Part shown: one piece after another, positions 2,883-35,428 of the stretch
Numbering within the stretch: position 1 is the stretch's first letter
Layout: each line of letters opens with the position of its first letter
From: an uncultured Gemmatimonadota bacterium
GTDB lineage: Bacteria > JAAXHH01
DNA: 64,000 nucleotides
Assembly (NCBI GenBank): GCA_951812955.1
Contig: OX638340.1
Location: 2,656,001 to 2,720,000 of the forward strand
Direction of reading: 5' to 3'
Notes under the pieces: generated by a model
What the model saw: the letters and a program-made list of their open reading frames with translations, nothing else
Told to the model about the DNA's origin: nothing
The model's database searches: none
Translations under genes and position numbers: made by a program

Positions 2883-2890
2883 GGAACGGA

Positions 2891-3898: not shown

Positions 3899-4203
3899 TG
3901 TGTGGACTCCCTTTACCGATAAGGTCCTTCAGAGCCTTCGTTCCGGTTCCAGTTCTTTTCACATAACATAACGCTGACATCAAGTATACATTATGCATCT
4001 CAAAGTGGGTATCAATACCGAACACTCAGGTCCTGCAACAGCGTGTTATTTCCGATGGCGCGTGCCGTTGCCATCCGTTGCCATTGGTACGCTGTAAGAT
4101 GTCGCTTTAAGTTGCCGTAGTAGGACCGCAATAGGTATGCATACGCGCCTCATGTCCATTCTCCGCATACGGATCCAGAAAGCCCTGCCAGCAAGGTCCT
4201 GAG

Positions 4204-6567
4204 ATGCTCAAAAGCTACCTGACCATAGCGATCCGGAATATGACGAGGCAGAAGGGATATACGGCGATCAACGTGCTCGGACTGGCCGTGGGCATGGTCT
4301 GCGCCATTTTGATCTTCTTTTACGTCGATTTCGAGCTCAGTTATGACCGGTATCATGAGAACGCCGGCCGTATCTACCGGGTCGCGGTCAACAACGACGC
4401 CCGGACGCCTCCAGCCCTGGCGCCCGCACTGCAGCAAGATTTCCCGGAAATCACGCGTTCTGTTCGCCTGCTGCCGACAACCGGTGTGTGGATCATGAAC
4501 CACGCGGAGAACATATATTACGAAAACCGGGTTTACTGGGCGGACAACGCGCTGTTCGACATTCTTGATTTTCCCTTGATCCAGGGAGATTCCCGGTCTG
4601 CGCTCGTTGCGCCTTTATCCGTGGTAATCAGCGAAGATACGGCCCAAAAGTACTTCGGAGAAACGGATCCGATGGGCAAGACGATTATCGCCGATAACGG
4701 TTTCCTGGTACTGACCGTTACGGGCGTCATGGAAAACACGCCGGCGAATACACACCTTCAGGCAGACTTCATCATTTCCCTTTCCACGGCATACCAGGAT
4801 GACCTGAAATACTGGTCGTGGATCAATTTCTACACCTACATCCTGTTGTCCGAGGGCCAGTCACCAGAGGCTACCGAGAGGAAACTGCCCGATTTCGTGA
4901 ACCGGCACATCGGGGAACGCGAGGGCCGTTTCGATCTCTTTCTGCAGCCGGTCACCGACATTCATCTCCATTCCAATCTCGAGCATGAACCCGGCGCGAA
5001 CAGCGATATCACCTACGTTTACATCCTGTCGGCCATCGCCGTCTTCATCCTGGTCGTCGCCTGCATCAATTTCATCAACCTGTCTACCGCACGGTTTGCC
5101 GTCCGCGCTCGAGAAGTGGGACTGCGCAAAGTGCTGGGAGCCCACCGAATCCAGCTGATACGTCAGTTTCTGGGAGAATCGGTCCTGGTAACCGCCGCCG
5201 CGCTGATCATCGCCCTGGTGGTCCTTTTGCTGATCTCCCCGTATATCGACGGCTTTGCAGGGAAACCGGTAACCGCGGCATTCACGGGACATCTCCCCTG
5301 GCTGCTCGCACTGCCGGTGGTTGCGCTGGTCATCGGGTTGTTATCCGGCAGCTATCCCGCTTTCCTTCTTTCTGCCATGCAACCGATACAGGGCGTGAAG
5401 GGAGGCCGCCGGCTCGATTCGGCCGGGGCCATGTCGAGGAAGATTCTGGTTGTTATCCAGTTCTCGATATCCATCGCGTTGATCATCAGCACGGGGATTT
5501 TGTTCAGTCAGATGGAATACCTCCGCAACAAGCGTCTGGGCTTCGATCAGAACCAGGTGATCGTGATACCCACGTTTAACGATGTCCTGGATGACTTTCA
5601 ACCCTGGAAAGAAGCCTTGCTGCAACATGCAGGCGTGATCGGGGTGACCCAAAGCAGGTCGCTGCCAGGACTGGCCGGCAACATCGGCCAGGTTGAGACC
5701 GTCACGATACAGCGTGTCGATGACCCCGGCAATACCAGGCACGACGCGCAGGGACTGAACGTCGGTCTGGATTTCGTGGAGACCCTGGGCATGGAACTGA
5801 TTGCAGGGCGGTCTCATGATGGTGCGTTTGCCAGGGAAGCGGAGAGACTGAACATCGTAATCAACGAAACGGCGCTCCGCGCGCTGGGCTGGGAAACCCC
5901 GGAGGCGGCCATCGACCAGCAGGTACGGTTCGGCAACGACGCGACGCGGACTGTTATCGGAGTGATCGGGGATTTCCATTTTCGATCGTTGCATCTGAAG
6001 ATCGAACCGCTCGTGTTGTTTCTGGGCGGCGGTTCCCACATGGCGGTCAAGCTCCAGCCCGGGGTCGTGGAAGATACGCTGGATATGATTGAAAGCCAGT
6101 GGTCGCGGTTCTTTCCGGATTTCCCCTTCGCTTATACGTTTCTCGACGAGAACATCGATCGGCTGTACAGGTCTGAAGTCGCTACCAGTTACGTGATCGG
6201 CATATTCGCCATGGTGGCTGTTTTCCTTGCCTGTCTCGGACTGTTCGCGTTGGTTTCGTTCACGGTGGAGCTGCGAACCAGGGAGATCGGCATTCGGAAA
6301 TCGCTCGGTGCTTCCGTCCATCGGATGCTGGCCCTGCTTTCCAGCGAGTTCATCGGCCTCGTGCTCCTCGCCAATTTCTTCGCCTGGCCGGCTTCGTGGC
6401 TGGTCATGCAGCGGTGGCTCGAGTCTTTCGCTTACCGCACGGAGGTCGGATTGGGCGTCTTCTTTCTTGCGTGCGGTCTGGCCCTGCTGATCACGCTGAT
6501 CACCATCGCCTTTCATGTGACCCGTACCGCCCTGACCAATCCGGCGGAGGTGTTGCGAAACGAGTGA
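4204..6567 (+). CDS. ABC transporter permease, MacB/FtsX-type, 787 aa; paralog 2 of 4
   Basis: MLKSYLTIAIRNMTRQKGYTAINVLGLAVGMVCAILIFFYV... and a C-terminal ...TALTNPAEVLRNE. Collinear with the other three paralogs over its full length. Confidence 0.85.
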   Translation: MLKSYLTIAIRNMTRQKGYTAINVLGLAVGMVCAILIFFYVDFELSYDRYHENAGRIYRVAVNNDARTPPALAPALQQDFPEITRSVRLLPTTGVWIMNHAENIYYENRVYWADNALFDILDFPLIQGDSRSALVAPLSVVISEDTAQKYFGETDPMGKTIIADNGFLVLTVTGVMENTPANTHLQADFIISLSTAYQDDLKYWSWINFYTYILLSEGQSPEATERKLPDFVNRHIGEREGRFDLFLQPVTDIHLHSNLEHEPGANSDITYVYILSAIAVFILVVACINFINLSTARFAVRAREVGLRKVLGAHRIQLIRQFLGESVLVTAAALIIALVVLLLISPYIDGFAGKPVTAAFTGHLPWLLALPVVALVIGLLSGSYPAFLLSAMQPIQGVKGGRRLDSAGAMSRKILVVIQFSISIALIISTGILFSQMEYLRNKRLGFDQNQVIVIPTFNDVLDDFQPWKEALLQHAGVIGVTQSRSLPGLAGNIGQVETVTIQRVDDPGNTRHDAQGLNVGLDFVETLGMELIAGRSHDGAFAREAERLNIVINETALRALGWETPEAAIDQQVRFGNDATRTVIGVIGDFHFRSLHLKIEPLVLFLGGGSHMAVKLQPGVVEDTLDMIESQWSRFFPDFPFAYTFLDENIDRLYRSEVATSYVIGIFAMVAVFLACLGLFALVSFTVELRTREIGIRKSLGASVHRMLALLSSEFIGLVLLANFFAWPASWLVMQRWLESFAYRTEVGLGVFFLACGLALLITLITIAFHVTRTALTNPAEVLRNE

Positions 6568-6641
6568 CCGGGGCCGGGGGCGGGAGTTCTGATTTCAGTT
6601 CCCGCCGGGGCAAGCGAGGTTTCGTAGCGATACGCAAAGGG

Positions 6642-8066
6642 ATGGTCAACTCCATGAAACACGTCGTCATCGTGGGCGGCGGCTTTGCCGGACTGAACGC
6701 GGCCAAGAAACTCGGCGGCCGGACCGATGTCCGCGTCACCCTGGTGGACCGGCAGAACTACCACCTGTTCCAGCCGCTCCTCTACCAGGTGGCCATGGCC
6801 GGCCTGTCGCCCGCCGATATCGCCACGCCCATACGCAGCGTGCTTGCCCGGTGCGGGAACATTTCGGTGCTGCAGGGCTCGGTCGAGCGGGTCGATCTGC
6901 AGGAACGGACCGTATCGGTGGATTTCGGCCAGCTTCAATATGATTATCTGATGCTCTGTTGCGGGTCGATCCCGAGCTATTTCGGTCACGAGGACTGGGA
7001 GGAGCACGCACCCAGCCTGAAGACGATTCCGCAGGCCACCGAGATTCGCCGGCGCCTGCTGAGTGCCTTCGAAGAAGCGGAACGGACCGACGACACTGAG
7101 CGGCGCCGGCAACTGCTGACCTTCGTCGTCATAGGCGGCGGACCCACCGGAGTGGAGCTAGCGGGCGCCATCGGCGAAATGAGCCGTTTCACCCTCGCGC
7201 GGGACTTCCGCAACATCGACACGAAACTTACCCGCGTCATCCTGATCGAATCGGGCCCGCGCATCCTCTCGATGTTCTCCGAAAAGCTGGCGTCCCGGGC
7301 GACGCGGGACCTGGAAAAGCTCGGCGTGCAGGTCTGGCCGAACACGCTCGCGACGGATATAGACGAGCATGGCGTGCAGGCGGGACCGGAACGCATCGCG
7401 TCCTCGACGGTACTCTGGGCGGCGGGCGTTCGGGGCGTTGAAATCGAGGGACAGCGGCAACAGGGCGTGGAGGCGGAGCGAGTGGGGCGCGCGGAAGCAG
7501 ACTGCGAGGGACACGTGGAGGTAGACTGCGAGGGACACGTGGAGGTAGACCGCGGTGGACGCGTGGAGACGGACCGCGGAGCGCACGTGGAGGTGGACCG
7601 CGGGGGACGCGTAGTCGTCAACGAAGACCTGAGCATCCCAGGACACCCGAACGTGTTCGTCGCGGGCGACCAGGCCTGTTTTACCCACCAGACCGGCAGT
7701 CCCCTTCCGGGCACAGCGCCCGTGGCTATCCAGCAGGGACGCTTCGTGGCACAGACTATTCGCCGCGACCTCGCGTGCAGACCGCGTGAGGCCTTTCGAT
7801 TCGTCGACAAGGGACAGATGGCGACGATCGGTCGCAGCCGTGCCATCGTGGAAATCGGTAAACTCAGATTCTCAGGCTGGTTCGCGTGGGTCACCTGGCT
7901 GGTGGTGCACGTCTACTTCCTCGTGGGTTTCAAGAACCGGCTGCTGGTCGTACTGCACTGGGCCTGGTCCTATCTGACCTTCCGCCGCGGCGCCAGGCTG
8001 ATCGTGGAGCGCGAGTGGCGTTTCGGCGGGCGCAAGGACGAGACCATGCCTGACAGGGAAGAATAA
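6642..8066 (+). CDS. ndh: Type II NADH:quinone oxidoreductase (NDH-2), carrying an unusual in-frame 5 x 8-aa tandem repeat insertion
   Basis: MVNSMKHVVIVGGGFAGLNAAKKLGG...VRVTLVDRQNYHLFQPLLYQVA is a classic NDH-2 Rossmann N-terminus. A second dinucleotide-binding region follows (FVVIGGGPTGVELAG). The ORF-track ATG at 6396 overlaps the previous gene, so the internal ATG at 6642 (or 6654) is preferred. The stop codon overlaps the next gene's start (TAATG). Confidence 0.85.
   Translation: MVNSMKHVVIVGGGFAGLNAAKKLGGRTDVRVTLVDRQNYHLFQPLLYQVAMAGLSPADIATPIRSVLARCGNISVLQGSVERVDLQERTVSVDFGQLQYDYLMLCCGSIPSYFGHEDWEEHAPSLKTIPQATEIRRRLLSAFEEAERTDDTERRRQLLTFVVIGGGPTGVELAGAIGEMSRFTLARDFRNIDTKLTRVILIESGPRILSMFSEKLASRATRDLEKLGVQVWPNTLATDIDEHGVQAGPERIASSTVLWAAGVRGVEIEGQRQQGVEAERVGRAEADCEGHVEVDCEGHVEVDRGGRVETDRGAHVEVDRGGRVVVNEDLSIPGHPNVFVAGDQACFTHQTGSPLPGTAPVAIQQGRFVAQTIRRDLACRPREAFRFVDKGQMATIGRSRAIVEIGKLRFSGWFAWVTWLVVHVYFLVGFKNRLLVVLHWAWSYLTFRRGARLIVEREWRFGGRKDETMPDREE
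7500..7619 (+). repeat. Five tandem 24-bp units inside the ndh coding region (unit consensus gacygcgrgggacrcgtggaggtn)
   Basis: Read directly from the sequence: gactgcgagggacacgtggaggta appears twice, then three related units. Translation is DCEGHVEV DCEGHVEV DRGGRVET DRGAHVEV DRGGRVVV. The last unit merges into the native NDH-2 motif RVVVNEDLSIPGHPNVFVAGD. Confidence 0.85.
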
Positions 8067-10456
8067 TGCCCGGAAGCAAGTTCACCATAAGTCTACGGCA
8101 CATGAGCCGCCAACGGGGATATACCGCGATAAACGTCCTCGGGCTGGCCGTGGGCCTGGTCTGCGCGATCCTGATCTTCCTGTACGTGCGCTGGGAACTG
8201 AGCTACGACCGCTACCACGAAAAGGCCGACCGTATCTACCGGGTAACGCTCAACGACAGCGCCCGATCGCCCCGTGAACTGGGTCCGATACTGCAGGCCG
8301 ACTTCCCCGAAATCCAGCAGTACGCCCGATTGCTTCCCACCATTGGAACCTGGATCATGAAGTACGAAGACCGGGTTTACTATGAAAAGAACGTGTACTG
8401 GGCCAACAACGAGCTGTTCCACGTATTTGACTTTCCCCTCGTCAGAGGAGATCCCGATCATGCCCTCGTAGCACCGTACACGGCGGTGATCAGCGAGGAT
8501 ACGGCCAGGAAATATTTCGGCGAGGACGATCCCATGGGGAAGACCATAATCGCCGACAATGGCTACATGCTGCTGACCGTCACAGGCGTCATGGAGAATG
8601 TTCCGGAAAACTCCCATTTTCATCCCGAATTCCTGATATCCTTGCCTACCGGATATGACAAATTCCAATGGAGCGAGACCCCGAGAATCTGGTATAGCGA
8701 CCTTTTTTACACCTACGTCGTCATGCCTGAAGGCCATCCGCCGTTGGAGACCCAGGAGAAACTGCCCGGTTTCGTGGAGAAACACGTAGAAGCGAGTTTC
8801 CTGGAGGACATCGGCCGTTTCGAACTGACGCTGCAACCCCTCACCGATATCCACCTTCATTCCCATCTTGAAAACGAGCACGGCACGAACACCGATATCT
8901 CCTACGTGTATATCCAGTCCGCCATCGGGCTGTTCATCCTGATCATCGCTTCGGTGAATTATGTAAACCTGTCCACCGCGCAGTTCGCGCACCGGGCCCG
9001 CGAGATCGGCATGCGCAAGGTTCTGGGGGCGTCCCGGGGACAGTTGATTCGGCAATACCTGGGCGAATCGGTCCTGATGACCATCGCGGCCCTGTTGATC
9101 GCCCTGGCGGCGGTCTACTTTCTTGCGCCGTATTTCGACGCGCTGCTGGGCCTGCCGGTAACCGCGGTCCATGCGCTGCACCCCCTGTGGTGGTTCGCCA
9201 TGCCGGCCATCGCGATCCTCATCGGGCTCCTTTCGGGTGGTTACCCGGCCCTTTTGTTCTCCTCCATGCGGGTCATTCCGGGGCTCAAGGCAGCGCAGCC
9301 CTACCAGCTTGGCGGCGCGTGGTCCAGGAAGATCCTGGTCATCGCCCAGTTCGTCATTTCCATCGCGCTGATCATCGGAACGGGCATCCTGTTCAGCCAG
9401 TTGAACTTCATTCAGAACAAGAAACTGGGATTCGAAAAGGACCTGGTGATCGTGATTCCCACGGTTCAGCAGGTGGCGGTCAACTACCAGCCGTGGAAAG
9501 ATGCCCTGTTGCAGTACACCGGAGTGGACGGCGTGAGCCAGGCCATCACCCTGCCCGGCCTGTTCGGTACCATAGGCCGGATGTCGACCGGTACGATCCA
9601 GCGCGTCGAGGATCCGGACCACGTCCGGCATACCGTCCAGGGATTTCAGGCCGCCGTGGATTTCGTGGAGACGATGGGCATGGAACTGCTCGCGGGCAGG
9701 TCTCATCGCGGGTCATTCAGAAACGACACCGAAACTGAAAACATCGTGATCAACGAAGCGGCTATGCGCGTCCTGGGCTGGGAAACGCCCGAAGAGGCCA
9801 TCGGCCGGCAGGTCCGCTTCGCCAGTGGAAACATCCACACGGTAGTCGGCGTGGTCCGGGACTTTCACTTCCGTACGCTTCACCTTGCCATCGAGCCGCT
9901 CGTATTCTTTCACGGCACAGGCCTGCACCTGGTGGTCCGGATCCGACCCGAAGACATCAGTCGCACGCTGGAATTCATCGAAGGGACATGGTCCGAGTTC
10001 TTCCCCGATTTCCCCTTTGCCTATACGTTTCTCGACGAAGACATCGACCGCCTGTATCGGACAGAGGCTCGTATCGGCTACTTCTTCGGCGCATTCGCCC
10101 TGGTTGCTGTTTTCCTCACCTGCCTGGGCCTCGTCGCGCTGGTATCGTTCACGGTCGAACGGCGGACCCGGGAGATCGGCATACGCAAGGCACTGGGCGC
10201 TTCCGTGCGGCGGCTACTCGCCATGCTGTCCGCCGAGTTCGTAGGACTTGCGCTCGTTGCCAATGTCTTCGCCTGGCCTGCGGCGTGGCTGATCATGACC
10301 CGCTGGCTCGAGGATTACGCCTACCGTGTCGAGTTCGGATGGGACATATTCTTCCTTTCGGGCGGCGCAGCGGTGCTGATCACCCTGGTCACCATCGGGT
10401 ACCACGTAATCCGGACTGCGTTGGCCAACCCCGCGGACGTGTTGCGGAGTGAGTGA
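8066..10456 (+). CDS. ABC transporter permease, MacB/FtsX-type, 796 aa; paralog 3 of 4
   Basis: MPGSKFTISLRHMSRQRGYTAINVLGLAVGLVCAILIFLYV... and ...TALANPADVLRSE at the C-terminus. Same architecture as paralogs 1 and 2. Confidence 0.85.
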   Translation: MPGSKFTISLRHMSRQRGYTAINVLGLAVGLVCAILIFLYVRWELSYDRYHEKADRIYRVTLNDSARSPRELGPILQADFPEIQQYARLLPTIGTWIMKYEDRVYYEKNVYWANNELFHVFDFPLVRGDPDHALVAPYTAVISEDTARKYFGEDDPMGKTIIADNGYMLLTVTGVMENVPENSHFHPEFLISLPTGYDKFQWSETPRIWYSDLFYTYVVMPEGHPPLETQEKLPGFVEKHVEASFLEDIGRFELTLQPLTDIHLHSHLENEHGTNTDISYVYIQSAIGLFILIIASVNYVNLSTAQFAHRAREIGMRKVLGASRGQLIRQYLGESVLMTIAALLIALAAVYFLAPYFDALLGLPVTAVHALHPLWWFAMPAIAILIGLLSGGYPALLFSSMRVIPGLKAAQPYQLGGAWSRKILVIAQFVISIALIIGTGILFSQLNFIQNKKLGFEKDLVIVIPTVQQVAVNYQPWKDALLQYTGVDGVSQAITLPGLFGTIGRMSTGTIQRVEDPDHVRHTVQGFQAAVDFVETMGMELLAGRSHRGSFRNDTETENIVINEAAMRVLGWETPEEAIGRQVRFASGNIHTVVGVVRDFHFRTLHLAIEPLVFFHGTGLHLVVRIRPEDISRTLEFIEGTWSEFFPDFPFAYTFLDEDIDRLYRTEARIGYFFGAFALVAVFLTCLGLVALVSFTVERRTREIGIRKALGASVRRLLAMLSAEFVGLALVANVFAWPAAWLIMTRWLEDYAYRVEFGWDIFFLSGGAAVLITLVTIGYHVIRTALANPADVLRSE

Positions 10457-10490
10457 CGCGGAGGAAAGTATCGACTGTATGGAGGGCCGG

Positions 10491-11246
10491 ATGAGTACAT
10501 CGCAATCCTGGGACCCGGAACGTTACGCCCGTAACGCCCGGTTCGTGGCGGACCTGGGCATGCCCGTGGTCGAGCTGCTGGAACCGCAGCCGGGTGAGTG
10601 CATCCTGGACCTGGGATGTGGCGACGGGGCACTGACGGCGAAGCTCGTCGATATGGGCTGCAGCGTCGTCGGCGTGGACAGCAGCGCGGAGCAGATCGAG
10701 GCGGCCAGGCAGATTGGTCTCGACGCACACGTCATGGACGGGCATCGGCTGACTTTCGAAGACGAATTCGACGCGGTGTTCAGCAATGCGGCGCTCCACT
10801 GGATGGGCCATCCGGACGAGGTGATCGCGGGCGTGCGGCGCGCGCTCAAGCCCGGCGGGAGGTTCGTGGCTGAATGCGGCGGGCACGGGTGCGTGGACAC
10901 CATTGTAAGGGCCCTCACTGAGGCGTTGAAACGGCGCGGTCTATGGGCGGACGGGATCAATCCGTGGTATTTTCCAACGGACGAGGAGTATCGCGAACGG
11001 TTGATCCGGCAAGGATTCGACGTGAAGTACATCGCGCTTATCCCCCGGCCCACCCCGCTTCCGGGCGACATCGGAGGCTGGCTGGAGACCTTCGCCGAAA
11101 ACTTCACGTCTCGGGTGCCCGAGGCGGAACGTCCCGCGTTTCTCGAAGAGGTCCGGGAAGCGATGAGGCCGAAGTTGTGCGATGCAGAGGGAGCGTGGAC
11201 GGCGGACTATATTCGGCTGAGGTTTAAGGCGGTGAAGGAGGGTTAG
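10491..11246 (+). CDS. Class I SAM-dependent methyltransferase, trans-aconitate methyltransferase (Tam)-like
   Basis: SWDPERYARNARF...ILDLGCGDGALT (SAM motif I)...FDAVFSNAALHWM matches the Tam-family pattern. GGAGGG sits 5 nt upstream of the ATG at 10491. The track ORF from 10449 overlaps the upstream gene's stop. Confidence 0.7.
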   Translation: MSTSQSWDPERYARNARFVADLGMPVVELLEPQPGECILDLGCGDGALTAKLVDMGCSVVGVDSSAEQIEAARQIGLDAHVMDGHRLTFEDEFDAVFSNAALHWMGHPDEVIAGVRRALKPGGRFVAECGGHGCVDTIVRALTEALKRRGLWADGINPWYFPTDEEYRERLIRQGFDVKYIALIPRPTPLPGDIGGWLETFAENFTSRVPEAERPAFLEEVREAMRPKLCDAEGAWTADYIRLRFKAVKEG

Positions 11247-12485: not shown

Positions 12486-13601
12486 CTACCCCATCCTCAA
12501 ACCGCGGTCCTCAAGCGGCAGATCAACGCGAACGTTTCCCCTGCGGTGAGATTCCCTTAAGGCAATGGCGATTTCGAGGGCTTCGCGGCCGAACTCGCCG
12601 GGACAGGTCGTCTCCCTTCCATCTTCGATCGAACGGCACACACCCTCGATGGCGTCGACCATGGAGCTCCTGGGATGCCAGGGTCCGGGCAGGTGCGTCT
12701 GGGTAGGTGCGCCGGTTTCGGGGTGAGGCGTCCATAGCTCGAACTGGGCATGGGAATTCCGGGATACGATGCGGCCGGTTTCGCCGATGAACTCGAGGGA
12801 CCAGGAGTAAAGCAGGGATTCGGACCGGGAGTTCAGGATGGTGCGGATTCCGTTTTCGTATACAATTATCCCCGATCCGGGGATGTCGCCCTCTGAAGCG
12901 GCCTGGTCGTCTGTATCGATCAGACCGACTACCCACCGGGCGGGCGCACCGGCGAATAGACGCAGCAGGGCCAGGGTGTGGCTCTGGATGTTGGACAGCG
13001 TGGAGTGGCTGTGGCAGACCATGCTCTTCAATGGTCCAATGGCGCCTTCGGCGATGAGCCTGCGCGCCGTCGTGTAATAGCTGTACCAGTTGAGATGGCA
13101 GGCCATGGCGAGGATGACGCCGTGCCTGGCGCAGGCATCGATCATGGCATCGGCTTCGGCCAGCGTGCGGCACATGGGCTTCGTGGCAAAAATGGCCTTA
13201 ACCCCCAGTTCGGCCAATCCCACCGTGATCTCCGTGCGCGGCTCGGGCCGGGTGGTCAGGCAGACCAAGTCGATCGCTTCCTTTTCAACCATCTCCCGAT
13301 AGTCGGTGTAGAGGGCCGAAACGCCCCAGCGCCGCTTGAAATCCTCGAGTTTGGCGGGATCCTCGTCCGCCGCGGCGACGAGATCGATCCCCCGCGCCTC
13401 CATCATGGCGGGCGCGTGCGCCCAGGGCCAGGGGTAATGGGGCTGACCGACATGTTCGTCGTCGATGGTGCTGCCCATCCTTCCGCATCCGACCACGGCG
13501 CCCCGGTAGGTATGCTTTGGCGCTGTGTCCTCTACGGCCTGGAAGGCTTCATCGTTGGATTCGGGCATGGGGGACATTCCTTCTTCTGTCTTGCCAGTCA
13601 C
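12486..13601 (-). CDS. Gfo/Idh/MocA-family NAD(P)-dependent oxidoreductase
   Basis: N-terminal Rossmann motif YRGAVVGCGRMGS. Overall pattern matches the family. Sits 33 nt downstream of the nitrile hydratase accessory gene on the same strand. Confidence 0.7.
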   Translation of the reverse strand: MTGKTEEGMSPMPESNDEAFQAVEDTAPKHTYRGAVVGCGRMGSTIDDEHVGQPHYPWPWAHAPAMMEARGIDLVAAADEDPAKLEDFKRRWGVSALYTDYREMVEKEAIDLVCLTTRPEPRTEITVGLAELGVKAIFATKPMCRTLAEADAMIDACARHGVILAMACHLNWYSYYTTARRLIAEGAIGPLKSMVCHSHSTLSNIQSHTLALLRLFAGAPARWVVGLIDTDDQAASEGDIPGSGIIVYENGIRTILNSRSESLLYSWSLEFIGETGRIVSRNSHAQFELWTPHPETGAPTQTHLPGPWHPRSSMVDAIEGVCRSIEDGRETTCPGEFGREALEIAIALRESHRRGNVRVDLPLEDRGLRMG

Positions 13602-13634: not shown

Positions 13635-14033
13635 CTATTTGGAAGAAATGCGCTGCGAGGTATGGTTTGGCCCGAGTTCGACCGGTTTGCCGTGCGGCGT
13701 GTTCAGATACGCCCTTCGCCATGCGTCCTTGCGGTTCGACGCTTCCGCCTGAGACACGAGCCCGCGCGCTCTGCAGAAGCGCTCAAGGGCCCGGAGCCAG
13801 TGCCGGTAATACGTATTGCCCTGGTCGGGGTCGCCCTCCCGCTGTGCCGCACGTATCTCCTCGCTCAGCGTGGCGGCCCACTCGCCCCACGTGAAGTAAC
13901 CTTCGCCGGAGAGACGCACCGCGAGCGCGAACGCCGATGCCTCCCATGGCGCGGCGAACACCGGCGAGCCATCGTCCCCAAGCGGTATGTCTCCCAGCCC
14001 ATGCGTGACGCCGGGCAGTTGCGAGTCTGTCAC
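13635..14033 (-). CDS. Nitrile hydratase accessory/activator protein (beta-subunit homolog, P14K-like), 132 aa
   Basis: SPVFAAPWEASAFALAVRL...GYFTWGEWAATL resembles the N-terminal region of NHase beta. The size matches the ~14 kDa accessory proteins of Co-type NHases. The ATG overlaps the beta-subunit stop (ATGA). Confidence 0.6.
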   Translation of the reverse strand: MTDSQLPGVTHGLGDIPLGDDGSPVFAAPWEASAFALAVRLSGEGYFTWGEWAATLSEEIRAAQREGDPDQGNTYYRHWLRALERFCRARGLVSQAEASNRKDAWRRAYLNTPHGKPVELGPNHTSQRISSK

Positions 14034-14701
14034 GGTTCAGGCTCCAGGTACGATTCCCAGAGGTCGACGTATACGGCGCTGTTCAAGTTGGCCGATTCCC
14101 CCCACAGATCACGCCCCTCGAAGCGAACGTTGTAGAGATGCCTTCCCTCGTCCACGCCCTGGGCGCTCAGGTCTGGGTACACCTGTGACCCGTAGTGCTC
14201 CCGCACGATCCCCGTGTGGCCTCGAACATAACGCGGTGCGCGTGTGTGCCCGCTTGGGTGGCGGTTGATTGCGCGCACACGGTCGCCGGGCGTAAAGCGG
14301 GCCGGGCCGGGCGCGGGCCGGACGTAGCTCGCAGTCATGTAGGGAGCCCCCAGCACCTGTTCGGCATGCACGACCCGTTCCATGATGTATTCCGGCACGG
14401 GGGTCGCCGCCCTTCCGGTCTGCAATTCCTCTTCGGAAACGAGGCCGGACCTGACCAGTTGCTTCTGTATACCCGCGAACCAATTCTCGTAGTATGAGTT
14501 GGCGAGATATTCGGCAGGAGGCAACTGCTCCCTGTTGTGGCGGGACATGTCGATGTTCCACAGTCCCAGAAGCCCGATAAGACGGACGATGCCGTACACC
14601 CGGCTCTCCCATTCCTCGTGGAAGACCGGCTCCTCGGACTCCGGTTCAGGTTGCACCGGTCCGAACCCCTTCATCCCGCCCAGGTCGTGTACGCCCTTCA
14701 T
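14030..14701 (-). CDS. Nitrile hydratase beta subunit
   Basis: Starts [16 protein letters not shown]...[16 protein letters not shown]...[12 protein letters not shown] and ends ...[29 protein letters not shown]. Collinear with known NHase beta subunits. The ATG overlaps the alpha-subunit stop (ATGA). Confidence 0.85.
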
Positions 14702-15333
14702 GGTTTGCCGCCTTGCGCTGCCGGTTGCCGCGCCTCCTCGACTCCGATCATGGCGTTGCGCGTCACGAGTTCCATGAGTTCCTCTTCGCTCCATCCCTCC
14801 GTGCCTTCGGGTCGCTGCGGCAGCACGAGGTAGCGCATCTCAGAGGTGGAATCCCATACGCGCACCTCTTTCCGATCGGCAATCTCCGAACCGAACTGCC
14901 TGATCACGCCTCGCGGATCGATGACGGCCTGCGCTCTGTATGGCGCGGACTTGTACCAGACGGGCGGCAGGCCAAGGAGCGGCCACGGGTAGCAGGAGCA
15001 GAGCGTACAGACGACGAGGTTGTGTACGTCGTCCGTGTTTGCCACGACACGCATCTGCTCGCCCTGCGCCCCCACGTAGCCCATCGATGCGATGGCGGCA
15101 TCCGGGTCGTCAAGCAGCCACCGCCTGTACGCTTCGTCCGACCAGGCATGCGCAACGACGTGCTTGCCGTTCGCCGGACCGATCTTGTCCTGGTACAGGT
15201 CAATGAGCGCGTCCAGCGCCTCCGGATCGACGAGGCCTTTCTCCACGAGCAGTGACTCGAGCGCTTTCACGCGCAACTCGATATCCGGGGGCGGCTCCGT
15301 GTGGTCTTGATGGTGCCGGTGATCGATGGCCAT
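14698..15333 (-). CDS. Nitrile hydratase alpha subunit, cobalt-type
   Basis: The metal-binding motif [22 protein letters not shown] has the Co-type Thr/Tyr signature (C-T-L-C-S-C-Y). The downstream sequence is collinear with Pseudonocardia-type Co-NHase alpha. Confidence 0.9.
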
Positions 15334-15365
15334 GGCGTTCTTCTCCCGCTCGGGAAGCTCCGGTG

Positions 15366-15578
15366 TCAGCGGTCAATCTGATGGTCGTCGGAAATCCGGA
15401 GATGTCCTTCGTCCCTACCCAGGTGGGTATTCCTATCGTGCATTTCGATTCGAACCTCGGAGAACTTTACGTTCATTTCAGTTCGTAACTCTTCAATATC
15501 GTCTCGCAGGGAGGCGATGTCCTTCCGGATAGCAATGGTAGAACGCCCCATGAAGGTCAGGATCGCCACGACCAGCAC
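15366..15578 (-). CDS. Small hypothetical protein (repeat copy A): hydrophobic N-terminus plus charged coiled-coil-like C-terminus (...[32 protein letters not shown]...)
   Basis: ORF with a GTG start, immediately upstream of NHase alpha. Its 3' half is 100% identical over 67 bp to a second copy at ~17000-17170. The coding status is uncertain. Confidence 0.3.
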
Positions 15579-15600
15579 ACCACGGCTGTGATCCCCTGCA
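15380..15600. repeat. Direct repeat copy A (~220 bp) containing the 67-bp core ccctacccaggtgggtattcctatcgtgcatttcgattcgaacctcggagaactttacgttcatttc
   Basis: Identical 67-mer found at 15408-15474 and again at ~17005-17071. The flanks are ~75% similar, with 1-nt indels. Confidence 0.85.
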
Positions 15601-15683
15601 TTTACTAACCTGTGTTTTCCGTATTTAAAAGCATTATATCATGTTTTTGACTTTATGATGGAGACTTCGGAAAGTATTCCCTT

Positions 15684-16781
15684 TTACGCCTCGGTTAAAC
15701 TCAAATCCGTGATTGCTGCAATAAATCTCTCGGACACTGCTCGTGCGAGTCTGTTTTCTCGGTCATTTTCCGGATTCAAAGAAGCTACCATAAGTACAGC
15801 CTGGATAAAATAACGTAGCATGGCGAGACGGTAGTCTTTCCAGCAATCATCCAAGGTGTATCCTCTGACTCCATTGGCCTTCAGGGTTTCATGGTAGAAT
15901 TTAAGGAGTTGGCGTTCTTCGGCTTGTCGTTTTGGTGTGGTTTTTAAACATCCACCGATATACCATGCGATATCCGAAACGCCCTCTCCGCACGATACGT
16001 CCTGCCAGTCGATCACGGCGAAGCCCGGCTCTCCAAGAGAAGCACCAAAAAACACGTTCTCCAAACGAAAATCTCCGTGAACCATGGTTCTCGGCGGTTT
16101 ACCCAATTGGGATTCATTTTTTAACTTCTCGGGTAATTGTTTTCCAAATGTCTTGACTGCATCCGTCATCAAGTCTTCAGTTTTATCGGCAAAGACTGGA
16201 AAAGCTTCTTTATACTGATCAAGGATCCAATTCGAAACAGCGTCAGAATCCTTCGGCGAATTCGCCAGCCAATCAAACGCTTCGAGTCTTTTGTTTTCCC
16301 ACCAATAGGCGTGAAACCTGGCTATTTCGTGGAGAGCATGTGCCGTCTCTTTCATTGTACTTCCACTGATTTGATCTCCAACTTTCGCGGGAGCAAGGTC
16401 TTCAAGAATCCTGATGTACTTTCCATGAGTAACACTCATCGCACTGAAATAACAGAGGGGTGTGCGAAGGGGTATCTCGCTGGCAATTTGCTGATAAAAC
16501 AAAATCTCGCACTTATCTGGTGTAGGTAGACGCGTTTTTGCTCGTAGAGGCTCATCTGGTGCATGTAGTTTGGCAATCAGCTTTTTGGGCAGTTCTGATT
16601 GAGGTTGATTAAAGCCAAGGTGCAAGCGTGCTAACTGTCCGTCACAAGTCAATTCTGCAATCGGCTCGATACGAAGCGAGGCTATACCGACATTCGAAAA
16701 CGTATTTGTTGAAACTAGTGCTGCGGTGAGCCAATGAGATGTTATATCCAGAGGTGTATTGGGAATACTCAAAAGAGTCAT
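15684..16781 (-). CDS. Phosphotransferase-family protein (APH/choline-kinase/EcKL-like kinase fold), 365 aa, lower GC
   Basis: Brenner motif MVHGDFRLENVFF (HxDxxxxN) and FAVIDWQD (DxD-like). HAYWWE is shared with the paralog at 56166-57263. AT-richer than the surroundings. Confidence 0.75.
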   Translation of the reverse strand: MTLLSIPNTPLDITSHWLTAALVSTNTFSNVGIASLRIEPIAELTCDGQLARLHLGFNQPQSELPKKLIAKLHAPDEPLRAKTRLPTPDKCEILFYQQIASEIPLRTPLCYFSAMSVTHGKYIRILEDLAPAKVGDQISGSTMKETAHALHEIARFHAYWWENKRLEAFDWLANSPKDSDAVSNWILDQYKEAFPVFADKTEDLMTDAVKTFGKQLPEKLKNESQLGKPPRTMVHGDFRLENVFFGASLGEPGFAVIDWQDVSCGEGVSDIAWYIGGCLKTTPKRQAEERQLLKFYHETLKANGVRGYTLDDCWKDYRLAMLRYFIQAVLMVASLNPENDRENRLARAVSERFIAAITDLSLTEA

Positions 16782-16939
16782 CAGAATTCCAGCCGCCTAG
16801 ATGTAGCCGAATAACGAGCACGCTTACTACATCAGTGTTCGAGAGGAATAACCAGTAATGAGTTACAGGTTTATGATATGGCGGTGCCAATTACACAGAA
16901 CTACAGACTCAAACAACGGCGCTGAGATCACCGTTCGCC

Positions 16940-17200
16940 CTTACTGTGGTCGTTGGAATTCGTAGATCTCCTTCGACCGTACCCAGGCGGTTATTCACCC
17001 TACCCAGGTGGGTATTCCTATCGTGCATTTCGATTCGAACCTCGGAGAACTTTACGTTCATTTCTGTCCGTAGCCCTTGAAATCGTCCCTCAAAGTCCCG
17101 ATGTCTTCCCTCAGAGCGTTTGTCGAACGCCCCAGGAAGGTGGGGATCGCCACGACCAGCACGCCGACAGCAGTGATTCCTTGTATGAATATGCCGAGTG
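16940..17200. repeat. Direct repeat copy B (~260 bp) with the same 67-bp core and an internal 21-bp tandem duplication (ccctacccaggcggttattca / ccctacccaggtgggtattcc)
   Basis: Read directly from the sequence. The minus-strand reading frame is shifted relative to copy A by single-nucleotide indels. Confidence 0.85.
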
Positions 17201-17311
17201 ATTCCATGACCAGGATGTGTGGATGAGAGTTTAGGAATTATGACACACTAACTATATCAGTGTGAGAAGTCCTGGAAATCTTGGTGGTTTTTTAATTTTT
17301 AAAAAAGGACC

Positions 17312-18658
17312 TTACGCGCCGTCCTGCCCGATCAGCAGTTCGAGCGGTTGCTCGAGGACTTCCCTGAGGTGGGAGAGGAACCGGCCGGCGACCGCGCCGT
17401 CGATAAGCCTGTGGTCGGAGGAGAGCGTGATCGACATCATGGCCTTGATCTCGACCTTGCCGTCCACCGCGACCGGGGTGTCCTTCACCCGGCCCACGGC
17501 GAGGATGGCCGCTTCCGGCGGGTTGATGATGGCGGTGAACTGGTCCACGCCGAACATGCCGAGATTGGAGATGGTGAAGGTGCCATAGCCGTAGTCTGAG
17601 GGGCCCAGGCCCTGTGCCCGTGCCTTCTTGCCCAGCGCACTGGTCAGCGCGGCGATCTCGAAGACCGATTTCTGATCGGCGGACGCCACGACCGGGACGA
17701 CCAGCCCGTCATCTAGGGCGACGGCGAAACCCACGTTCACGTCCGCATACTCCACGATATCCCCGCCTTCGAGGGACGCGTTGACGGCGGGGAAGGACCG
17801 CAGGGCGATCCCGGCGGCCTTGATGATCAGGTCGTTCACGGAGACCCTGGCCAAGCCGCGTTTTTCGCCGTAGGCGATCAGCTGTTCCCGCAGCCCGGTA
17901 AGCCGCGTCATGTCCACGTCCATGGTGAGGTAGAAGTGGGGAATGGTTGAAGCGCTTTCGGCCAGTCGCGTCGCGGCGACCTTGCGCAGGCCGCTGAGCG
18001 GCGCGCGGCGTTGGACGCGTTTCGAACCGGGACTGGATGGGGCCGAGGCCGTTGCTGGCTCCGTCACGGGCGTCGCCGTTGCTGCCGCTGGAATCGGCGC
18101 GGCGGCGGCCTGGGCAGCAAAGGCTTCCACGTCCGAGAAAACAATCCGCCCACCGGGGCCCGTCCCCGCTATATTTCCGATGTCTACGCCGAGATCTCGT
18201 GCGTGCCGACGCGCCTTGGGCGAAATTTTGACGCGGCCGGGTTGTCCGGGCCGTCCGTCCGGTTCGGTCATGGCCGCCTGCCCCTGGCCGTTTTGTTCGG
18301 GAGCTACGGCGGCCGGGATACCTTCCCCGGTCGTTCCAGCCGGGTCGGACACCAATGCATCCGCGCCACCTGTCGCGCCTCCGCCATCGCCGGGGTCTCC
18401 GTCGCCGCCGACGGTCTCACCCGCTTCGCCGATGTATCCGATGACCTGCTGAATGGGCACGTCGTCTCCCGGTCCGTGCATAATCTTGAGCAGCGTGCCG
18501 GAAGCCTTTGCCTCGACTTCCATCACGCTCTTGTCCGTTTCGACGTTGAAGAGCACTTCGCCCTCTTTGACGGAATCGCCTTCATTTTTCATCCACTCGA
18601 CGATGATTCCGGATTCCATGGTCATGCCGAGTACGGGCATGATGACTTCTGTGGCCAT
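17312..18658 (-). CDS. Dihydrolipoamide acyltransferase (E2 component of a 2-oxoacid dehydrogenase complex), ~449 aa
   Basis: Lipoyl domain MATEVIMPVLGMTMESGIIVEWMKNEGDSVKEGEVLFNVETDKSVMEVEA, followed by an Ala/Pro-rich linker and E3-binding region. The C-terminal catalytic domain ends ...SDHRLIDGAVAGRFL (DHR motif). Preferred start is the ATG at 18658. No E1 or E3 genes lie adjacent. Confidence 0.85.
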   Translation of the reverse strand: MATEVIMPVLGMTMESGIIVEWMKNEGDSVKEGEVLFNVETDKSVMEVEAKASGTLLKIMHGPGDDVPIQQVIGYIGEAGETVGGDGDPGDGGGATGGADALVSDPAGTTGEGIPAAVAPEQNGQGQAAMTEPDGRPGQPGRVKISPKARRHARDLGVDIGNIAGTGPGGRIVFSDVEAFAAQAAAAPIPAAATATPVTEPATASAPSSPGSKRVQRRAPLSGLRKVAATRLAESASTIPHFYLTMDVDMTRLTGLREQLIAYGEKRGLARVSVNDLIIKAAGIALRSFPAVNASLEGGDIVEYADVNVGFAVALDDGLVVPVVASADQKSVFEIAALTSALGKKARAQGLGPSDYGYGTFTISNLGMFGVDQFTAIINPPEAAILAVGRVKDTPVAVDGKVEIKAMMSITLSSDHRLIDGAVAGRFLSHLREVLEQPLELLIGQDGA

Positions 18659-18988
18659 TACGGGCTCCCGGGGTCCTTTGATACGTCCGATCCTGGTCTG
18701 TATTCTCTGTGCTAAATCTTTTGTATCTATGTGACTTACAACGCGATAAAAAGTCCGTAGAGCATACACTTCCGCATGGCCGGCGTCAAGCATTTTTTGA
18801 TTGACTTGGACCGGAGGAAAGGGATAGATTCATCCCGGTTCCGCATTCGAAAAACACGGGAGGGAAACCGTCCCGAGGTACGGATTCTTCCATCCTGAAC
18901 GAATGTAAGAACAGTTTTTCGGAACGTCCGCGTTTCGAGGACCTGTTCGGCTGTTGTTCACCCTACCTGCGTGGAGGATCCGAGCCAC

Positions 18989-22577: not shown

Positions 22578-23441
22578 TCACCCGACCAGGCGGCGCAGGT
22601 ATTCGCAGTACGCGTTGTCTTCCACATAATTTCCGATCTTCAGCACCTGGTCCCGGTCGATGTACCCCTTCCGGTAGGCGATTTCTTCGACGCAGCCGAT
22701 CTTCAAGCCCTGCCGGTGTTCGACGGCCTGGACGAAATTGCTCGCCTCCAGCAGGCTTTCCGGCGTGCCGGTATCCATCCAGACGATCCCTTCGTCGAAC
22801 CGCTCCACCTTCAGCTTGCCCCGCTGGAGATAGATGTTATTCACATCGGTGATCTCGAGTTCTCCGCGGCCCGATGGCCGCAGCGTTTTTGCAATGAATA
22901 CGACTTCGTTGTCGTAGAAGTAGAGCCCCGTGACGGCGTAGTTGGATCGTGGATTGCGGGGTTTCTCTTCAATGCCGACGACGCGCTCGTGCTCGTCGAA
23001 TTCGACCACGCCGTACCGTTCGGGCTCCTTGACGTAGCAGGCGAAGACCAGTCCTCCGTCTTCGTGCTGCGCGGCCTTTTCGACGATCTCGGTCAGGTTG
23101 CTGCCGTAGAAGAAGTTGTCTCCGAAGATCAGTGCACATGATTCATCGCCGATAAACGATTCCCCTATCAGAAAAGCCTGTGCCACCCCCGCGGGCGCGG
23201 GTTGTATGGCATATTCGAAGTGCATCCCGAGGGCGCTGCCGTCGCCGAAGAGCCTGCGGTACAGGTCGATGTGATCGGGAGAGGAAATGATCAGGATTTC
23301 CCGAATCCCCGCCATCAAGAGGACCGACAGCGGATAGTAGATCATCGGCTTGTCGAAGATGGGGATGATCTGCTTCGATATGGCCTGGGTCTGCGGGTAT
23401 AGACGCAATCCGTGCCCACCCGCGAGTATGATGCCCTTCAT
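22578..23441 (-). CDS. rfbA: Glucose-1-phosphate thymidylyltransferase
   Basis: MKGIILAGGHGLRLYPQT...KQIIPIFDKPMIYYPLS...GDNFFYG is a near-canonical RmlA. The track ORF extends upstream, but the ATG at 23441 (MKGIILAGG) is the conserved start. Confidence 0.85.
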   Translation of the reverse strand: MKGIILAGGHGLRLYPQTQAISKQIIPIFDKPMIYYPLSVLLMAGIREILIISSPDHIDLYRRLFGDGSALGMHFEYAIQPAPAGVAQAFLIGESFIGDESCALIFGDNFFYGSNLTEIVEKAAQHEDGGLVFACYVKEPERYGVVEFDEHERVVGIEEKPRNPRSNYAVTGLYFYDNEVVFIAKTLRPSGRGELEITDVNNIYLQRGKLKVERFDEGIVWMDTGTPESLLEASNFVQAVEHRQGLKIGCVEEIAYRKGYIDRDQVLKIGNYVEDNAYCEYLRRLVG

Positions 23442-23761
23442 TTGTGGTCTCCGGTTGTCGTAGGGGCGACTAGCACTAGAGGATCCTGTTTTAGGTGTCA
23501 TACACGCTTTCACAAGTTGAATTGCAAAAGATGGACAAGCGAAGAATCGCTGGACTGAGCACATCAGCAAAAAACGCGAAGTTGAATCCGGCAAGCCGAT
23601 TCTTTTTACGAGGCTACAAATCTGTTTTCGACTAAGTTTGTAGTCAAAGTAAACGCTTCATGCCGTAAAAAACACATGTCATTTTTTAAAATTAGAAACA
23701 ATCGCAATCGAAACTGGAGATAAACCACCCCTCATCGAACTCAAAAGCAAAGAAGCGACAT

Positions 23762-24650
23762 ATGGCTGATGACTCTACCACGACTGCTATACCACCAAAA
23801 CAACCGGATACGAGTAGTTCGATTGCAATTAAGTGGCTTCATTCCAAGCTTGTGGAGATTGAAGACCATACATGCATGGATGCGTTAACGATATTTGGTC
23901 CCATAACGGAAACAGTAGATCATCGAGTCAGGTTGGCGATCGAGAGTTTACCGAATCACCGCAACGGCTTGTTGGTCATTATCGATACACCCGGTGGAAT
24001 TGTAGAGGTAGCCGAACGTATTGTAACCACTATCAGGCATTACTACAAAGAGGTCAAGTTTCTCATACCTGATAAAGCGATGTCAGCAGGTACGGTTCTG
24101 GTGATGTCTGGAGATGCGATATTGATGGATCACTTTTCTTGTTTAGGCCCAGTTGATCCACAGTTGTATATCGAAGGCAAACCAATCCCGACGTCTGTCC
24201 TTTCTTATCTTGAACAATATGAACGATTTGTTCAAAAATCCATGGAAGGTACCTTGACGAGTGCTGATTTGGTTCTGCTTCAAAAGCTTGACGCTGCTGA
24301 CTTACGACAGTACGAACTGGCGGCCGAGTTATCTGTGCGCCCGTGATTGGCTTGTTCGGTATAAATTCAAGGATTGGTCCAAGCACAGTTCCACAGGGAA
24401 CACGGTTTCAAAAGAGGAAAAAACAATCCGTGCCGAAGAAGTTGCGAGAGCGCTTAATGATCAGGAAAGATGGGGTACCCATGGAAGGGGAATAAACCGA
24501 GAAGTTCTTGTCAAATTAAAGCTCAAGATTGATAATTTGGAATCCGATACTGAATTAAGTAGTCTAACAAAAGAGTATTTCTGGTTTTTTAGAGACTTAG
24601 CATTCAAAGAGGAGTCGCAAAGTCTTGTACACAACCGGTTATTCATCTGA
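23762..24650 (+). pseudogene. SDH/S49-type Clp-fold serine protease, disrupted by a -1 frameshift near 24325-24335 (N-terminal part 23762-24346; C-terminal part continues in the +1 frame to 24650); low-GC island 1
   Basis: The N-terminal frame has IIDTPGGIVEVAERIVTTIR...AMSAGTVLVMSGDAILMDHFSCLGPVDPQ (oxyanion and Ser nucleophile context of ClpP/SppA-class proteases). The second frame (SYLCARDWLVRYKFKDW...GTHGRGINREVL) aligns to the C-terminus of the intact paralog at 35429-36433 (VKSWLESYMFKGM...KSHSRHIPREEL). Confidence 0.55.
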
Positions 24651-24660
24651 GAGGAATATC

Positions 24661-24882
24661 ATGAAAACAAATGACAAACTTGTCCTCACTAAGGAACAAC
24701 TGGTTGAGAACCCCGCTGTCAATCCCGGGATTGTAAAAGAAGCGCTGAAAATGCGCCTTGAACTGGAGCGTTTAGGAGTATGGGATAACAGTGGGACACG
24801 TGTGGTATCGCCTTCCGAAATCAGGCCAGCTAAGAATCCCATCGGGAATATCAGACGTCGGTCTATTTCTCAAATCCGGTAA
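24661..24882 (+). CDS. Small hypothetical protein (74 aa), companion of the SDH-type protease; has a PGIVKE motif
   Basis: MKTNDKLVLTKEQLVENPAVNPGIVKEALKMRLELERLGVW... starts 11 nt after the protease stop. GAGGAA RBS. Homologous to the small ORF upstream of the second protease copy. Confidence 0.4.
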   Translation: MKTNDKLVLTKEQLVENPAVNPGIVKEALKMRLELERLGVWDNSGTRVVSPSEIRPAKNPIGNIRRRSISQIR

Positions 24883-25015
24883 TCCTAGCCTGCAGCCGTA
24901 TTATCCTCAGGTATTAAGTCCTTGTTCCGGATTCAATACCCATACTGAATGGTTTGATTAGGCAGTAGCGAAGAAAACGAGCCCGCCCGTTCCTCACCCG
25001 CTCTTCACCCGCTCT

Positions 25016-35069: not shown

Positions 35070-35212
35070 TACCTACAATATGTTGTGTGTAGTAGTGGAA
35101 AAAAGTACAACATGCTTGTCTAATAGGATTTATTTGGGATTTCACACCACAAACAACTATCTTATAGATACTTCCTCAATTCCGTATACCTATCCCCCTA
35201 GGGAGTATGTAC

Positions 35213-35404: not shown

Positions 35405-35428
35405 ACAGTGTGACGCGGGAGCTATTCG

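Follow-up and report, generated by a model that had tools for sequence, protein, structure and literature searches.

The window analysed here is a 64,000-nucleotide (nt) stretch of contig OX638340.1 (positions 2,656,001 to 2,720,000; assembly GCA_951812955.1) from an uncultured Gemmatimonadota bacterium. In it, two direct repeats lie on either side of a gene for a kinase-fold phosphotransferase (here K), upstream of an operon encoding nitrile hydratase (NHase). The repeats share a core of 67 nt without a single difference, embedded in clearly diverged flanks. What are these repeats, how did their core come to be identical, and how did the kinase come to lie between them? An original prediction, made from the letters of the window alone, had proposed gene conversion or a functional non-coding element for the core, and delivery by recombination for the cassette. 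The answer in which we have good confidence joins three events: two paralogues of a small gene, here termed s, have decayed; K was relocated by recombination between copies of s; and the identical core is a later patch of gene conversion.

The repeats as copies of a small gene

The 67-mer is exact in both copies, as predicted, and occurs only twice in the window (plus strand; chance expectation 0; Table 1). It belongs to a longer direct repeat of 190 nt (15413-15601 against 16998-17186; 83% identity, two 1-nt indels), and an additional 42 nt are also 83% identical (15382-15423 against 16947-16987), giving a total of ~220 bp for copy A and ~240 bp for copy B. The predicted repeat length therefore stands, and the flanks, put at about 75% similarity in the prediction, are ~76-83% identical. 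Copy B also contains an extra 21-nt unit, corresponding to one 7-residue unit of the minus-strand open reading frame (ORF). The original prediction had described this unit as an internal tandem duplication; it is present, but in the alignment it differs from the adjacent unit at 5-6 positions.

Both repeats are paralogous, disrupted copies of s, which is encoded on the minus strand: sA is the copy next to the NHase operon, and sB the copy next to the gene for an E2 acyltransferase (of a 2-oxoacid dehydrogenase complex). A query with repaired sB frameshifts retrieved 42 clusters of 67-99 residues, with E values down to 9e-36, none of which carries a Pfam domain or an informative name. Members of the family share a near-invariant N-terminus of 28 residues, a middle part with a variable number of 7- or 11-residue units, and a conserved end of 18 residues; the window copies, judged by the N-terminal 28-residue motif and the C-terminal motif MNTRLGRVEGHLRIS, are pseudogene members. 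The ratio of non-synonymous to synonymous substitution rates (dN/dS) is 0.10 across the first 36 codons of 26 s copies, and the length variation of intact members is all in frame, so that s is truly coding, and the family is under purifying selection.

AlphaFold models s as one continuous helix spanning residues 2-81 (mean predicted local distance difference test score 77), suggesting an N-terminal membrane helix that continues as a long helix, which probably oligomerises. When 1.84 billion representative proteins were searched by profile, 329 relatives were retrieved at E ≤0.001; those inspected combine a membrane helix, variable 11-mer repeats and the C-terminal sequence MN(T/G)RLGRVEGHL. 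Their best Pfam likenesses (CCDC90-like/DUF1640, apolipoprotein and DUF948) all fall below threshold, and a profile search of the PDB returned generic coiled coils only. CCDC90-like proteins (PF07798, formerly DUF1640), DUF948 and YtxH resemble s in architecture, with a membrane helix at the N-terminus and then a long helix built from repeats, and CCDC90-like is the first or second best match of distant s relatives. These matches are weak: against a CCDC90-like gathering threshold of 33.5 bits, P0010 reaches 20.6 and the more distant relatives 15-30, the window copies give no hit, and s itself has a score of only 17 bits against DUF948 (cut-off 37). The C-terminal MN(T/G)RLGRVEGHL is specific to the s superfamily.

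The prediction of a small membrane-helix protein on the minus strand is thus upheld in kind, but not the view that copy A is intact: in sA the start codon has changed from ATG to ACG, TAG TAA follows, and one base is missing relative to orthologues (GCCGT-GGT), leaving a GTG-started ORF of 70 residues (15366-15578) that lacks the membrane helix. Copy B is frameshifted, as proposed, although by two 1-nt deletions and not one (at AAGGGC-TACGG and CGAA-TTCC), which split it into ORFs of 49 and 50 residues. Sequencing errors were considered as the source of these frameshifts and rejected, since sB is base-for-base identical, both frameshifts included, in L024 and L025, two independent short-read assemblies from other samples, and its first frameshift is shared by L026, a Logan contig from a third sample that also shares the defects of sA. 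For annotation, both small ORFs in the window are pseudogenes.

Locus architecture and the origin of the identical core

One genome from each of 185,579 species was scanned with s, which identified 15 loci in 15 metagenome-assembled genomes (MAGs), labelled Candidatus Latescibacterota, Gemmatimonadetes or 'bacterium'; the isolate names of several suggest a sponge origin. In all 15 loci, as in the window, s lies within the same syntenic locus, bordered by the E2 gene and a gene for a GFO/IDH/MocA oxidoreductase (GFO), in one to three copies. The content between these borders varies. The arrangement E2-NHase-s-GFO is found in L006-9, L011, L012 and L016, E2-s-NHase-s-GFO in L001, E2-s-NHase-s-s-GFO in L013 and L015, and E2-NHase-TPR-s-GFO (with a TPR protein gene) in L005; L010 and L014 have E2-TPR-s-s-GFO and no NHase operon. 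The original prediction had recommended looking for the 15600-16950 segment in relatives, and the comparison is informative: the kinase is absent from the locus in L001 and L017, and is present in L002 and L022, where it is likewise bracketed by s copies but lies downstream of the NHase operon (E2-s1-NHase-s2-K-s3-GFO in L002/L003 and L022). L017, the closest relative in the genome scan (92-94% nt identity), reads E2-[DUF3857, TPR, DUF3857]-5'-truncated s-NHase-[1.1 kb low-GC]-GFO, and the window E2-sB-K-sA-NHase-GFO.

Semi-global alignment of segments from the various s copies revealed that sA and sB are mosaics of s1-, s2- and s3-type parts. The 5' flank and 5' coding part of sB are s1- and s2-like, and its 3' flank is 79% (L002) and 74% (L022) identical to the s2 3' flank that leads into the kinase, compared with ≤59% for all other copies. 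The 5' flank of sA shares 71-72% identity with the s3 5' flank located behind the kinase (others ≤60%), while its 3' coding part and 3' flank are 100% and 91% identical, respectively, to the L017 s1 upstream of NHase. Mismatches between sA and L017 number 23/79 on the 5' side of the core, 2/65 within it and 2/75 on its 3' side; because of this jump, an old recombination junction can be placed in sA at the 5' edge of the core.

The core itself has a younger history. It is identical at 67/67 positions between paralogues whose flanks are ~76-83% identical, and when 48 mismatches were distributed randomly over the 254 aligned columns, a run of ≥67 identical columns arose in 0/200,000 simulations (mean longest run 20). 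The decisive comparison is with L026, which is 95.3% identical to the window and carries the E2 3' end, sB, the kinase, sA and the NHase alpha start on a single contig, in the same order as in the window. This gene order, found in all three of the other assemblies, is therefore older than the split between the lineages of the window and L026. The 67-mer, by contrast, occurs only once in L026: its sA matches the window core at 67/67 positions, whereas its sB differs from the window sB at 17/65 core positions, compared with 18/287 and 4/99 in the flanks (4-6%), and has no extra 21-nt unit. In L017, the s copy at the sA position contains the core with two synonymous differences. The sister-lineage orthologue of sB thus lacks the tract within orthologous flanks, and the sequence of the donor is ancestral. 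Since L026 sB is unconverted and the sA core is ancestral, 55-67 nt were copied from sA to sB after the split from L026, on the branch that includes the window, L024 and L025. Gene conversion, one of the two explanations offered in the original prediction, accordingly accounts for the perfect core. Short conversion is general in the s family: paralogues within L002, L022 and L013 have exact runs of 42-53 nt in common, at ~80% overall identity.

We had at first favoured a different origin, in which a circular kinase module integrated into s1 by a Campbell-type event and the identical core is the original crossover, or a heteroduplex repaired there. The mosaic copies are in keeping with it: s1-like sequence extends in sB as far as the 3' end of the core and in sA begins at the core's 5' edge, and the older mosaic junction of sA falls within a few bases of that edge. 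It was dropped, and now seems distinctly improbable, because L026 already has E2-sB-K-sA-NHase and yet its two copies differ at the 17/65 core positions given above, with the window sB otherwise orthologous; the identity of the core arose after the rearrangement.

A functional non-coding element under selection (a small RNA, a protein-binding site or an attC-like site) would also account for perfect identity within diverged flanks. A perfect 14-nt palindrome, TACCCAggTGGGTA, lies at one end of the core, and the core block is the part most often shared between the L002 paralogues. The palindrome is not conserved, however, being specific to the strain group of the window; the site reads TACCCACCTGGGTC in the closest other relative and TACCCGCCTGGGTC in most relatives. 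Across genomes the core block accumulates 5-18/67 mismatches, with synonymous and non-synonymous codon changes about equal in number, and it is missing from short s members. RNA folding of the core shows no excess structure over shuffled sequences (z = 0.08 and -0.44), Rfam 15 gives no covariance-model match at E ≤1 on either strand of 14500-18000, and no integrase is annotated in the syntenic loci. L026 sB, moreover, lacks the block in an otherwise equivalent locus. The non-coding half of the original prediction, including a small RNA, is accordingly very unlikely to hold.

The prediction had itself named two ways in which it might fail, and neither has more than a minimal chance of being correct. 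The first is an assembly artefact, with the repeat collapsed or the contig chimerically joined at the 67-mer. The L024 and L025 contigs do end 55 and 57 nt inside the sA core, marking the repeat as a branch point of the assembly graph, but such an end is expected of a SPAdes contig at a 67-nt repeat if the graph was built with k=55, and indicates that the duplicated core is present in those samples too. L024 and L025 independently give E2-sB-K-sA(5') with sB 100% identical, a single L026 contig covers everything from the 3' end of E2 to the start of NHase alpha, and the direct NHase-GFO junction of the window is not obtainable by a single misjoin of an L002-like genome; three independent assemblies therefore agree. 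The second, a mobile element delivering the kinase (a miniature inverted-repeat transposable element, a repetitive extragenic palindromic element or a transposon with long target duplications), would suit a compositionally foreign gene flanked by direct repeats, but is just as implausible, given that the repeats are a conserved protein-coding gene found also where the kinase is absent, are confined to one locus per genome in relatives and to two copies in 64 kb here, and enclose a cassette with only weak, internal inverted repeats, no terminal ones and no transposase ORF (none was seen among the window ORFs examined either), and that a scan of viral contigs with the s alignment found no s relative. 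JGI metagenome contigs, scanned with the s alignment and the exact 67-mer, also yielded nothing.

The kinase, its neighbours and its leader

K encodes a phosphotransferase of the EcKL/APH fold, and the description of a low-GC kinase gene flanked by the repeats and upstream of the NHase operon is borne out: its GC content is 0.46, compared with 0.60 for the window and 0.64 for the neighbouring NHase alpha gene. The 365-residue protein passes the Pfam cut-offs for EcKL (50 bits; cut-off 22), DUF1679 (39.8; 24) and APH (37.8; 23.2), and its translation contains the catalytic-loop motif HGDFRLEN followed by IDWQD, features of EcKL/APH/choline-kinase-like phosphotransferases. NCBIfam resistance models score 14-18 bits against cut-offs of 271-625 (14.2 against 625 for APH(2'')-IIa), and viomycin Vph scores 13 against 400; going by these scores, K should not be annotated as a gene for (aminoglycoside) resistance. 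Exact-protein look-ups of K, the sA ORF and NHase alpha gave no record, although homologue searches placed a protein identical to K on a 3.81-Mb contig in NCBI/ENA, presumably that of the source genome. Elsewhere in the window, at ~56196-57143, there is another, distant ORF of APH/kinase type, ~20% identical to K over 353 aligned residues.

In all hosts, the GC content of K is 0.44-0.46, against 0.60 for the host loci and 0.465 for a Poribacteria contig (one contig measured). The kinases of the Latescibacterota-type loci (window, L002, L022 and L019) group into one clade, with 80-100% identity among them. Its sister is a large clade, at 70-76% identity, some of whose proteins bear the name Candidatus Poribacteria; the next relatives are ~40% identical. 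On two Poribacteria-type contigs, the kinase occupies a shared neighbourhood (PhyH ... kinase ... Sortilin, glyoxalase) without s. By composition and phylogeny K is thus foreign and horizontally acquired, and its composition would point to transfer from Poribacteria to Latescibacterota. Genes are reported to move laterally between co-resident sponge symbionts (PMC8163846). A eukaryotic origin of this EcKL kinase was considered and rejected, as its nearest relatives are bacterial (the named ones Poribacteria) and reside in bacterial gene neighbourhoods.

Between the window and L002/L022, amino acid identity is 85-86% for the kinase, 88% for NHase alpha and 82% for E2; because its divergence is about that of its neighbours, the kinase is an old resident of the locus and no recent arrival. 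The cassette proposed in the original prediction is therefore correct insofar as the kinase is foreign and occupies another position between s copies in relatives, but a recent insertion did not create the repeats: they are a resident coding gene, also present without the kinase, and the kinase is as diverged as its neighbours.

Other settings of kinase homologues were also recorded. In another relative (L019, 9311-9710, and L020, 5350-5749), the kinase has no flanking s; two pieces of a degraded GFO gene lie beside it, and the kinase is located downstream of an island of defence-like character that includes NACHT, SIR2, Fic and DUF433 genes. On the Poribacteria-type contig L021 (4348-5466), the strand opposite to the kinase homologue carries, ~0.5 kb upstream, a gene resembling IS605 OrfB/TnpB.

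Table 1. Positions of the features of the s-kinase-NHase locus in the window and of E2-tail duplicates in related loci
Feature	Position	Strand	Basis or remark
GFO/IDH/MocA oxidoreductase, conserved right border	12486-13577 (start probably 13577 or 13568)	minus	Pfam, synteny
NHase operon, cobalt (Co) type	13635-15333 (alpha 14698-15333, beta 14030-14794, accessory 13635-14033)	minus	Pfam, synteny
sA, NHase-proximal s copy	15366-15625	minus	5' degraded
Copy A of core, conversion donor	15413-15479	minus	67/67 in L026 sA; 2 synonymous changes in L017 s
K, EcKL/APH-fold phosphotransferase	15684-16781	minus	Pfam; GC content
Kinase leader	16782-16908	minus	homologous to L002/L022 kinase leaders; motif at 16821-16838, 40 nt before ATG
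sB, E2-proximal s copy, pseudogene	16909-17207	minus	family start MESLGIFIQGITAVGVLVV
Extra 7-residue unit in sB, beside 3' end of conversion tract	16977-16997 (approximate; ambiguous by a few bases)	minus	absent from sA, L026 sB and L017 s
Copy B of core, conversion recipient tract	16998-17064	minus	encodes 22 residues; exact match to copy A
Putative s-unit promoter/leader, between E2 stop and sB start	17208-17311	minus	promoter-like hexamers, TG-extended -10 boxes 17278-17237; motif ACACTGATATAGTTAGTG at 17246-17263
E2 acyltransferase of 2-oxoacid dehydrogenase complex, conserved left border	17312-18793	minus	Pfam, synteny
E2-tail duplicate, L001	8080-8200
E2-tail duplicate, L002	10070-10193
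E2-tail duplicate, L013	7640-7761
E2-tail duplicate, L015	7640-7761
E2-tail duplicate, L016	7880-8001
E2-tail duplicate, L022	7470-7590

The NHase operon begins close behind sA, the alpha start lying 33 nt past the sA stop. Its products match the Pfam models NHase_alpha (279 bits), the N- and C-terminal domains of the beta subunit (129 and 106 bits) and, for the accessory gene, NHase_beta_N (44.8 bits); the translated alpha subunit carries CTLCSC, in which the threonine marks a cobalt-type enzyme. In the window, an s copy is cleanly absent between the NHase accessory gene and GFO.

In L001, L002, L013, L015, L016 and L022, the s copies that follow NHase are preceded by the last ~45 nt of E2 and a poly-T tract, and the repeated unit is therefore E2 tail, leader and s together. 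The NHase operon in the E2-tail genomes is bracketed by ~400-bp repeats of this composition, or in L016 by the E2 tail alone. The duplicated E2 tail seems to be a trace left when the NHase module was inserted or duplicated at an earlier time.

Two blocks in L017 look like foreign insertions at the same two junctions. One, of 5.8 kb (2064-8000; GC content ~0.52), encodes two DUF3857/transglutaminase proteins and a 458-residue TPR protein and lies between E2 and the 5'-truncated s; the other, of 1.1 kb (9914-11036; GC content ~0.43), holds two unannotated ORFs between the NHase accessory gene and GFO. Elsewhere in the window, low-GC islets at 23000-25000 (0.445-0.50) and 35000-36500 (0.47; window 0.60) each include a gene for a ClpP-like SDH-type serine protease (PF01972). 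The one at 35429-36433 (334 residues) looks intact, while that at 23762-24346 (194 residues) overlaps an ORF at 24261-24650, suggesting one split gene.

The leaders point to a further connection between s and the kinase. In all Latescibacterota-type loci, the ~60 nt immediately preceding the kinase start share homology with the s-unit leader, and the motif ACACTRAN5KWAGYG occurs only twice in the window (0.02 expected by chance), 39 and 40 nt before the sB and kinase starts, respectively. On the minus strand, ACACTGA-N5-(G/T)(A/T)AG(C/T)G lies upstream of s in most relatives, and the instance before sB is partly palindromic (CACACT-N9-AGTGTG). No s-type leader motif or similarity was found upstream of the Poribacteria kinase. 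The sB motif overlaps promoter-like hexamers whose -10 boxes are TG-extended. The conserved motif could serve the modules as a common operator or promoter element. No terminator-like site was found between 17500 and 15200, and sB, K, sA and the NHase operon would probably be co-transcribed from the s promoter. In this arrangement the NHase operon lies 1.9 kb away from the promoter region that precedes NHase in relatives.

Proposed relocation of the kinase and comparison with known systems

How the kinase reached its position can be proposed from these comparisons of sequence. In this group of sponge/marine, Latescibacterota-like bacteria, copies of s, with their promoter/leader, sit at the borders of modules (the NHase operon, the kinase and the TPR protein) in a variable locus between E2 and GFO, the only place where s occurs. 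The kinase was acquired horizontally and carries an s-type leader. Homologous recombination between s paralogues would then have placed the kinase module into s1, upstream of NHase; the incoming module would have been flanked by an s2-type 3' part and, at its other end, by an s3-type 5' part, giving rise to the mosaics sB and sA. One possible route is a circle, looped out by recombination between s2 and s3, that entered s1. Ectopic gene conversion from sA to sB, after the split from L026, finally created the perfect 67-mer.

Several observations weigh against this reconstruction. Under the relocation models a third copy of s would be expected between NHase and GFO, the very position at which the window has none, and an extra deletion, or an exogenous circle from another strain, must be assumed. 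The closest kinase-free relative, L017, has another insertion at this site, and its s is truncated at the 5' end, so that the state of the immediate ancestor is uncertain. The extra 21-nt unit of sB, which differs from its neighbour, is unexplained in origin. The kinase clade is sister to, and not nested within, the Poribacteria clade, of which only three proteins are named, and the donor is suggested mainly by GC content.

A bolder interpretation regards the s unit, consisting of the promoter/leader, the s gene and in some cases the ~45-nt E2 tail, as a recombinase-free docking and expression adaptor for modules. Modules bracketed by s units would loop out as circles, each with one s unit, would return to any genome of the group through homologous recombination with its s copy, and would thereby gain a shared, possibly co-regulated promoter. 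If true, this would amount to an integron-like cassette economy among sponge symbionts that operates on homology alone, but we regard it as unlikely. The locus does resemble an integron cassette array in being promoter-proximal and composed of single-gene modules in one orientation with a repeated element between them, and in that the kinase seems to share the upstream promoter/leader. Integrons, however, rely on attC and IntI, whereas here the repeat is a translated gene under purifying selection, 200-400 bp in length, and not an imperfect-palindrome attC; no integrase is found among the annotated neighbours in the syntenic loci (in the window, adjacent genes only were annotated), and the core has no excess structure.

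The reconstruction that we prefer, with decayed paralogues, relocation between s copies and a later conversion patch, calls on mechanisms that are already known, and leaves them unchanged. Ectopic gene conversion is known between dispersed bacterial paralogues such as tufA/tufB and the rRNA operons. As in those cases, the window has a short perfect tract within diverged paralogues that matches the paralogue and not the orthologue, and the transfer was unidirectional, from the copy that retains the ancestral sequence. Here, in contrast, the recipient, and largely the donor too, are pseudogenes, so that homogeneity need not be selected for; the tract, at 55-67 nt, is very short, a 21-nt indel lies next to its 3' end, and the part with variable repeat number lies slightly upstream of its 5' end. 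With the unconverted state retained in a sister strain, the locus offers a clean, dated example of very short ectopic gene conversion in an uncultured symbiont.

'Minimal mobile elements', or recombination hot spots, are variable cassettes, flanked by conserved genes, whose exchange proceeds by homologous recombination and requires no dedicated recombinase. The locus described here has the same organization, with conserved borders (E2 and GFO), variable content (NHase, kinase, TPR and DUF3857 genes) and no annotated integrase or transposase; it differs in that its modules are also separated by one to three copies of s with a leader, a source of internal homology that apparently provides the breakpoints. 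An NHase operon, a kinase acquired across phyla and other modules have been reshuffled between copies of a previously undescribed small gene. The mechanism is conventional; the s family and its locus are new instances of it.

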